Shown here: piece after piece, positions 26,201-26,595 of the stretch
Layout: each line of letters starts with the position of its first letter
Numbering within the stretch: the stretch's first letter is position 1
Origin: Glaucostegus cemiculus
Lineage: Eukaryota
DNA length: 64,000 nucleotides
NCBI GenBank assembly: GCA_976551045.1
Contig: CDPCPM010000010.1
Location: 31,620,001-31,684,000 of the forward strand
Direction of reading: 5' to 3'
Notes under the pieces: model-generated
The model's input: the letters and a program-made list of their open reading frames with translations, nothing else
Database searches by the model: none
What the model was told of the DNA's origin: nothing
Translations under genes and position numbers: made by a program

Positions 26201-26595
26201 GGTAGGTTAATTGTCTGTGAAGTGATCCTTGGAGGTGGGAGGCAGGAGAATCAGGTTTTCGTTGATGGGTAGATGAGAGGGAACAGGTTACAGGGATATA
26301 AACGGGGCAATGGGAATTAATGGGATTGTTCAGAGAGGCGTCGGAACTCCACGGAGTGTGTGAATGGCCTCCCATGTTGTAAGTAAATTGGAGAAAAGAT
26401 GGGAGGAAGAAACAGATGAAAATGTGAAAAATGTCCAGTTATTAAACAGGACGGAGAGCCCAGCTGAAAATACCAAATTTGTCTTTCACAGTGAGAACAT
26501 TTTCGGACATCTGGATCATCGCACTTCCGGGATACTTGTTGGTTAAACTGGCCGTTGCTCTGGGACTAACTTGCTATTCGTTGGGAATGAACTGA
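14680..26595 (+). CDS. Gene A: complete 6-coding-exon IgSF receptor (leader-V-C2-V-C2-TM with Lys, minimal tail), 471 aa, CD4/LAG-3/G6F-like architecture
   Basis: Exons 14680-14767, 17920-18261, 21496-21765, 24274-24618, 24727-24993, 26492-26595. All introns GT-AG and phase 1; joined length 1416 nt = 471 aa + TGA with no internal stop. Confidence 0.85.
15478..16515 (+). mobile_element. Penelope-like element 3-prime part (GIY-YIG endonuclease)
   Basis: [21 protein letters not shown]...PVATHFNS...[11 protein letters not shown]; terminal cctgatgaagggtct...gaaacgtcgac...ctgacctgctgagttcctccagca motif. Confidence 0.85.
17105..17505 (-). mobile_element. Rex1/Babar-type LINE 3-prime end
   Basis: [26 protein letters not shown] on the minus strand; ccaata-like tail repeats. 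Confidence 0.75.
17920..18261 (+). CDS. Gene A D1, V-like Ig domain without cysteines
   Basis: ttccaacag|GA acceptor, a|gtgagt donor; [34 protein letters not shown]...[22 protein letters not shown]...EIFGIK; three paralogous exons in the window. Confidence 0.88.
19031..19101. repeat. (CA)n microsatellite
   Basis: Perfect AC run of about 70 bp. Confidence 0.97.
21496..21765 (+). CDS. Gene A D2, C2-type Ig domain
   Basis: cacag|TT acceptor, g|gtaagt donor; GSDVTLSC...LQW...EDGKSYVC (B-strand Cys, C-strand Trp, F-strand Cys). Confidence 0.92.
22935..23263. repeat. Compound/imperfect (CA)n microsatellite
   Basis: Degenerate CA-rich tract ending in a perfect run. Confidence 0.95.
24274..24618 (+). 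CDS. Gene A D3, V-set Ig domain
   Basis: cacag|AT acceptor, g|gtaggt donor; [23 protein letters not shown]...WTW...FGNRL...[19 protein letters not shown] (canonical DxGxYxC). Confidence 0.93.
24727..24993 (+). CDS. Gene A D4, C2-type Ig domain with WxC F-strand
   Basis: ccacag|TC acceptor after a 108-bp intron, a|gtaagt donor; EGDTVTLTC...LVW...GKWTCC. Confidence 0.92.
25510..25825 (+). mobile_element. V-SINE
   Basis: B box ggttcaattcc; V-domain gggtttcctccgggtgctccggtttcctccc. Confidence 0.8.
26492..26595 (+). CDS. Gene A transmembrane/terminal exon
   Basis: gtctttcacag|TG acceptor in the required phase 1; translates [38 protein letters not shown]. Too short for the ORF track; read manually. 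Confidence 0.78.

Follow-up and report, generated by a model that had tools for sequence, protein, structure and literature searches.

Gene organization at the locus

The window, which is the whole 64,000-nucleotide (64-kb) stretch of Glaucostegus cemiculus DNA that was analyzed, holds a tandem cluster of at least three genes of one immunoglobulin (Ig) receptor family, for which eight loci are present in the sawfish Pristis pectinata. Gene A, on the plus strand, was modeled as six GT-AG exons with every intron in phase 1, together encoding 471 aa with no internal stops and the architecture leader, V-C2-V-C2 and transmembrane (TM) segment. Exon 1 (14680..14767) contains the start ATG and signal peptide and ends in a phase-1 GT donor, and its product matches the N-terminus of the sawfish protein XP_051871326.1. 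The four Ig domains that follow are a V-type domain without cysteines (D1, 17920..18261), a C2-type domain with YxC in strand F and an extra, unpaired cysteine, Cys191, where the family has arginine (D2, 21496..21765), a V-type domain with a single cysteine pair and 91% identity to the sawfish orthologue (D3, 24274..24618), and a C2-type domain with a WxC motif of the CD4/LAG-3 type (D4, 24727..24993). The last exon (26492..26595, phase 1) is preceded by a polypyrimidine tract and an AG at 26490-26491; it encodes the TM helix, with the AAA codon of a mid-membrane lysine, Lys456, at 26545..26547 and a TGA stop at 26593..26595. All splice sites and structural Cys and Trp residues of gene A are intact. 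The sawfish orthologue is LOC127570088 (XP_051871326.1), which is identical at 404 of 471 aligned residues (86%) and has the same D4-TM junction and the same lysine. A 145-N assembly gap lies at 28075-28219, 1.5 kb 3' of the TM exon, and long CA microsatellites were noted by eye at about 18950 and at 22900-23300.

Gene B (32367..40380, plus strand) is a broken orthologue of the ITIM-type sawfish gene LOC127570087, in which leader, D1 and D2 are present and D4 is frameshifted; no D3, TM or tail exon of it was detected in the window. An inverted D2-exon fragment lies in one of its introns (33405-33518, minus strand). Gene C (49984..63096, plus strand) comprises a leader and eight Ig exons in an intact open frame of 842 aa, and the two sawfish genes that it matches best (81% and 84%) are of the ITIM type, while no TM or tail exon for it was found in the window. 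Over 581 bp, genes A and C are 95% identical in their leader exons and the flanking sequence (14616-15196 and 49920-50500), whereas the ectodomains are far more divergent, a similarity that is consistent with recent conversion or duplication. Two domains of gene C depart from the usual pattern. In D4 (56931-57191) the C-strand Trp is replaced by Cys and the F-strand Cys by Trp, and therefore the canonical disulfide is lost or rearranged; in D6 (60675-60947) the F-strand Cys is replaced by Trp, a change common to second units in other species. No flanking genes or MHC-linkage markers were identified within the 64-kb window, and minus-strand open reading frames at 7204-9670 and elsewhere resemble, by eye, remnants of LINE reverse transcriptase.

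The transmembrane helix and its lysine

A phase-1 acceptor, a lysine codon and a stop had been proposed for the last exon of gene A in a sequence-only reading of this DNA, and all were confirmed by the sequence and the 471-aa model. The TM helix with a central lysine was likewise upheld: Lys456 is position 13 in the best 21-aa hydrophobic window of gene A (mean Kyte-Doolittle value 1.95), and residues 443-471 form a helix in the sawfish orthologue as modeled by AlphaFold. Over the 15 residues that follow Lys456 there is no Cx(C/H), (F/Y)xxL, ITIM, ITAM or YxxM motif, in agreement with the absence of signaling motifs originally claimed, and no basic residue. Hydrophobicity alone is weak evidence for a TM exon, given that an equally hydrophobic stretch follows 5 of the 956 acceptor-like sites in the window (469 on the plus strand and 487 on the minus strand) that served as a chance control. 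The exon is instead settled by homology, because the sawfish RefSeq model has the identical D4-TM junction and TM. A feature peculiar to gene A is a proline six residues N-terminal of the lysine that is found in none of 26 other Lys-type proteins. The TM peptide gave no matches in the PDB at E 10, and Pfam returned nothing above noise for the D1 or TM exon.

A chondrichthyan family with charged and ITIM-bearing members

A search with the D3 exon of gene A gave 62 protein matches, every one from a shark, ray or skate. A profile search then brought the set to 131 named proteins from chondrichthyans (120 of 142 matches listed), isoforms and incomplete models among them. The family spans the chondrichthyans from chimaera to rays and has relatives among sturgeon, bowfin and teleosts, and its members are named in databases only as "uncharacterized", "hypothetical" or by generic Ig similarity; no earlier description of it was found in the searched literature, which misses most subscription journals.

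By rule-based classification, the 131 proteins comprise 23 with a Lys-type TM, 69 with another TM, five with an N-terminal Arg in the TM and 34 without a TM. ITIMs are present in 61 of the 69 other-TM members (two of the 61 with an Arg late in the TM) versus none of the 23 Lys-type proteins, and all 14 species with Lys-type proteins also have ITIM members, although these counts are not independent since the database models include isoforms as well as partial and possibly chimeric predictions. Conservation of the lysine in relatives, a check that the sequence-only reading had itself proposed, was examined with an HMM built from five TM exons, in which the Lys column was masked to avoid circularity, and with which 152 named proteins were scanned. 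There were 23 matches at 29.5 bits or more, from 14 species (five were HMM seeds and two are isoforms of one gene), with the next match at 1 bit, and the lysine was present in 23 of 23. The conserved mid-TM lysine and the motif-free tail that define the DAP12-coupled class in sequence are thus both present in the family of gene A.

The N-terminal-Arg TM class, without ITIMs, consists of P0004, P0029, P0031, P0071 and P0129 from Mobula and Hemitrygon. Its TM is apparently derived from an ITIM-type TM exon, and its form suggests coupling to FcR-gamma or zeta. At the other extreme of size, three predicted proteins from catshark, smooth-hound and sevengill shark (P0001, P0002 and P0003) have 1400-1720 aa, with the four-domain unit repeated three or four times and an ITIM tail; some of the three could be fused gene models.

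Several ectodomain features of gene A recur across the family. In D1, Gly occupies the B-strand Cys position in 46 of 47 rows and Leu the C104 position in 46 of 52, and D1 is entirely free of Cys in 36 of 46 rows. The WxC of D4 is nearly invariant (Trp in 59 of 60 rows, Cys in 60 of 60), while D2 has Tyr at the corresponding position in 56 of 60 rows and Trp in none. The V domains vary more than the C2 domains, with mean identities of 44/50% versus 62/64%.

The expectation that ITIM-tailed partners lie nearby was therefore borne out in part: such members occur in every one of the 14 species with Lys-type proteins, and in the window gene C has ITIM-type genes as its best matches, though neither a TM nor a tail exon of it was detected there. 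By its matches, gene C is likely an ITIM partner at the locus of gene A, although an intact one is not seen in the window.

The tail of gene A

The claim that there is virtually no cytoplasmic tail held for gene A and failed as a description of the family design, as the relatives are tailed and the sawfish orthologue has an Arg at the position of the gene A TGA. In the sawfish the frame reads on past this Arg, and the in-frame sequence 3' of the stop in the window (26596..26685, plus strand) still matches the sawfish read-through tail at 23 of the 29 codons that follow. Lys-type proteins other than gene A have 11-56 residues C-terminal of the lysine; one to five basic residues follow the helix in 25 of 26 of them, versus none in gene A, and a distal Tyr is present in only one of the 26 tails, outside any motif. 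On this comparison of sequences, the near-zero tail of gene A is a derived state, an Arg codon having turned into a stop relative to the sawfish orthologue. By the same comparison, the family design is a motif-free tail, with the near-absent tail and the Pro before the lysine peculiar to the gene A copy. The translated read-through peptides of a skate model hint at a splice donor that formerly lay just after this Arg codon and is mutated in the lineage of gene A.

Searches of the window by tblastn and with an HMM of five tails found no spliced tail exon downstream of the kind that shark and skate Lys-type members have (very short exons could escape these searches), and tblastn and HMM searches likewise found no alternative family TM exon for gene A there. 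Within the TM exon, four GT sites lie upstream of the stop, none of them consensus-like by eye. The stop need not abolish function, because the tail is dispensable for an adaptor mechanism. Relaxed selection on gene A was considered and rejected: conserved columns have changed 15 times in its lineage versus nine times in that of the sawfish, a difference that is not significant (p=0.31).

Pairing and probable exchange of ectodomains

The closest relative of a Lys-type ectodomain is often an ITIM member from its own species, and the two are identical at 422 of 435 residues in sawshark, 389 of 427 in sevengill shark, 393 of 429 in the devil ray Mobula hypostoma and 322 of 343 in the stingray Hypanus. 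Both TM types thus occur with near-identical ectodomains, as is the case for paired receptors as a class. The sawfish orthologue of gene A is paired less tightly, with 289 of 430 residues shared with a sawfish ITIM gene.

For the ectodomain tree, 63 rows were chosen, made up of 41 four- or three-domain members, six eight-domain proteins that were halved, three units from the window and seven outside rows; it was obtained by a quick search under LG+G4 and carried long-branch warnings. The Lys label requires 13 changes on this tree, no fewer than in shuffles (105 of 500 were as low), and a single Lys clade (13 Lys rows versus 25 others) was rejected by the AU test (p-AU 5.9e-6). The Lys-type TM exon is thus a single homologous unit, but the ectodomains joined to it are intermixed with those of the ITIM type, which points to activating and inhibitory genes having exchanged sequence repeatedly, although chimeric gene predictions could contribute to the pattern. 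Such intermixing of Lys-type and ITIM-type ectodomains, which are up to 97% identical, is the signature of paired receptors.

Fold and comparison with known receptors

The description of gene A as CD4-shaped proved sound. For the sawfish orthologue, AlphaFold gives (mean pLDDT 83) a V-C2-V-C2 arrangement with domain-spanning strands at 132-147 and 337-352, and Foldseek and VIA-align placed CD4 on top with LAG-3 close after. The CD4 match had a Z of 18.6 over 312 aligned residues, with an rmsd over the whole model of 12.2 that is high because the hinge differs; rat CD4 D3D4 alone matched with a Z of 13.8 and an rmsd of 2.4 A over 170 aligned residues. In sequence searches of the PDB, LAG-3 ranks first or second, and the nearest named sequences outside the family are CD4 and LAG-3 (E about 1e-12 to 1e-17).

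The likeness to CD4 and LAG-3 extends to the order of domains, the continuous G-to-A strands across D1-D2 and D3-D4, and the WxC of D4. In contrast, CD4 and LAG-3 have WxC in strand F of both D2 and D4 (PMC10768021) where the family has YxC in D2, and gene A lacks both the Cx(C/H) LCK-binding tail of CD4 and the (F/Y)xxL(D/E) tail motif of LAG-3. The family further differs in the Cys-free D1, in its multigene cluster with proteins of four to about 16 Ig domains and in the possession of charged-TM and ITIM forms. CD4 and LAG-3 are normally one gene each at a conserved locus. Sharks have true CD4 and LAG-3 according to PMC10768021, where both are also described as without a D1 intron, so that the missing D1 intron of the family does not discriminate. 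In a quick tree with long-branch warnings, 56 family rows formed a branch apart from six CD4/LAG-3 rows, shark CD4 and LAG-3 not being in the set (SH-aLRT 99). Genes of sturgeon, bowfin and teleosts belong to the family branch as well.

Other receptor families resemble gene A in organization or in function. The DICPs, described in bioRxiv 2021.06.11.448072 as a family of ray-finned fish and coelacanth, are likewise clustered paired receptors, with D1-D2 or D1-D2-D1-D2 ectodomains and ITIM and charged-TM forms. Compared by that description, DICP D1 has C23 and C104, often with extra Cys, where the family has Gly and Leu, and bowfin DICPs use a TM Arg and are MHC-linked (bioRxiv 2021.06.11.448072). 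The G6F-like proteins of teleost thrombocytes also have four Ig domains, and the nearest Atlas clusters include G6F-like (features 0.96) and CD4; as described in PMC3528668, the G6fL tail has its own ITAM and YxN, of which the family has none. Functionally, the TM Lys, motif-free tail and inhibitory counterparts are shared with MDIR, CD300, TREM, NKp44 and activating KIRs. MDIR is the known paired family of skate, and by the description in PMC3031540 the CD300-type V domain has two Cys pairs, versus none in D1 and one in D3 of gene A. No MDIR or CD300 names occur among the listed homologues, and the fold matches CD4 first. Gene A was accordingly rejected as a CD4, LAG-3, DICP, G6fL or MDIR, as it lacks defining features of each of them. 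By analogy, it would work like TREM, NKp44 and the activating KIRs, in a cluster organized like the DICPs.

Proposed adaptor coupling and alternative explanations

Taken together, the data make gene A a probable activating receptor of the DAP12 type within a family of paired receptors that resemble CD4, its pairing with an adaptor being inferred by analogy. Inside the bilayer, Lys456 would contact acidic TM residues of an ITAM-bearing adaptor dimer, for which DAP12 is the likeliest candidate, and the adaptor would bring the receptor to the surface. Binding of ligand by the variable V domains (D1/D3) would then trigger Src/Syk signaling. The paralogues that combine an ITIM with a similar ectodomain would recognize identical or overlapping ligands, and their tails would recruit SHP-type phosphatases. 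Over evolutionary time, ectodomain exons would have been swapped repeatedly between the types, with the two TM/tail modules persisting. We consider it likely that gene A joins an ITAM adaptor with an acidic TM and is activating. For DAP12 itself as this adaptor the odds are, in our view, a little better than even, DAP10, FcR-gamma and zeta being less likely. Evidence against this reading comes from the searched papers, which hold no record of DAP12 in cartilaginous fish, from PMC4016189, which in 2014 reported no FcR-gamma in sharks, from the lack of PDB matches to the TM peptide, and from the missing basic residues and the unique Pro of gene A.

The characters peculiar to gene A raise the question of whether this copy is crippled, such that a Pro-kinked helix with no cytoplasmic basic anchor leaves the protein degraded, shed or a non-signaling decoy. 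The stop in place of the sawfish Arg, the lack of basic residues after the TM together with the unique Pro, the unpaired Cys191 and the broken state of the adjoining gene B all point in that direction, but the splice sites and structural Cys and Trp residues are all intact and the excess of conserved-column changes over the sawfish is not significant. We consider a crippled copy unlikely, and the copy may be weakened. Less probable again is that the lysine serves another partner, be it DAP10, FcR-gamma, CD3-zeta, another acidic-TM protein, or oligomerization or ER retention without ITAM signaling. Arg-type TMs also occur in the family (5/131), so that more than one partner type is probably used, and DAP12 is not documented for cartilaginous fish in the searched papers: there is no record of DAP12/TYROBP in the searched literature or in the part of a shark scRNA marker table that was covered (PMC11372145), nor any occurrence of DAP12 in the part of the supplement of PMC3964593 that was covered. 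Against another partner, a lysine at the center of the TM and a tail free of motifs are what the DAP12 pattern would show, as PMC6514059 pairs a TM Lys with DAP12 (NKp44) and a TM Arg with FcR-gamma or zeta (NKp46, NKp30), and it is the separate N-terminal Arg type that would be expected for FcR-gamma/zeta.

Two further readings concern the C-terminus itself, and both are very improbable. Gene A ends about five residues after its hydrophobic stretch with no charged stop-transfer residue, as might a protein whose hydrophobic C-terminus is a GPI-anchor signal, and conversion to a GPI anchor has occurred in CD16b and some CEACAMs; yet inspection by eye shows no omega site of small residues, followed by a polar spacer, where one would usually lie, and the lysine is conserved in tailed relatives. 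The real transcript could also differ from the model, either through another TM/tail exon after D4 or because the TGA is a sequence error and the tail is sawfish-like, of 30 aa. The match of the post-stop frame to the sawfish tail and the N gap at 28075-28219 speak for this, whereas the searches of the window for other TM or spliced-tail exons were negative, the sawfish model uses the same D4-TM junction, and a tail free of Tyr motifs would leave the adaptor mechanism unchanged.

Coupling of a TM Lys to an adaptor is textbook logic, and the value of the present analysis lies in the family, which combines both signaling types with a CD4/LAG-3-like fold. According to PMC4016189, sharks have no LRC-type (KIR/LILR) homologues that could balance activation and inhibition in innate cells; a paired family of this kind may be one way in which sharks and rays balance immune-cell activation. 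A bolder and rather doubtful reading makes the family the sister lineage of CD4/LAG-3, with MHC binding retained, and the cartilaginous-fish equivalent of KIR/LILR, in the form of paired receptors on NK or myeloid cells that sense MHC with a CD4 scaffold. If that were true, CD4 and LAG-3 would be single-copy survivors of an older paired-receptor system, which sharks and rays keep in expanded form and which sturgeon, bowfin and teleosts also have. The family supplies concrete clones for the study of adaptor coupling in cartilaginous fish and of whether the CD4 scaffold recognized MHC before CD4 and LAG-3 arose.

Ray-finned relatives and genomic position

An exhaustive HMM search gave 74 representatives at E up to 1e-30. 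Eleven matches with an E of 1e-37 or better were looked up, and all are uncharacterized proteins, from shark, chimaera, sturgeons, bowfin and teleosts. Nine weaker ones comprise six CD4/LAG-3 proteins, two nameless proteins and one uncharacterized teleost protein, DICP-like by our own label, which falls outside the family on the ectodomain tree. A search with ray-finned members returned 34 matches, and no family is named in any of them. The pattern of the two TM types recurs in 40 ray-finned proteins, of which 27 combine a neutral TM with an ITIM and six have a charged TM without an ITIM. A GYLxVK TM motif, as in the shark Lys type, is present in P0154 (bowfin) and in P0163 and P0276 (sturgeons). 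The masked HMM scored the sturgeon TMs at -0.6 bits and did not list the bowfin one, so that a common origin of these Lys-type TMs and the shark exon is not shown.

Neither the bamboo shark (Chiloscyllium plagiosum) member LOC122556491 (P0065) nor its numeric neighbors appear as family markers among the supplement rows of PMC11372145 that were covered. In the part of the gene-ID order seen, the immediate neighbors of LOC122556491 are HPGD-like, and DIAPH1, PCDHB, NDFIP1, SEPT8 and HSPA4 are near in number. In human the latter five are genes of 5q31, and this partial order is no more than a hint that the cluster lies outside the CD4 and MHC regions.
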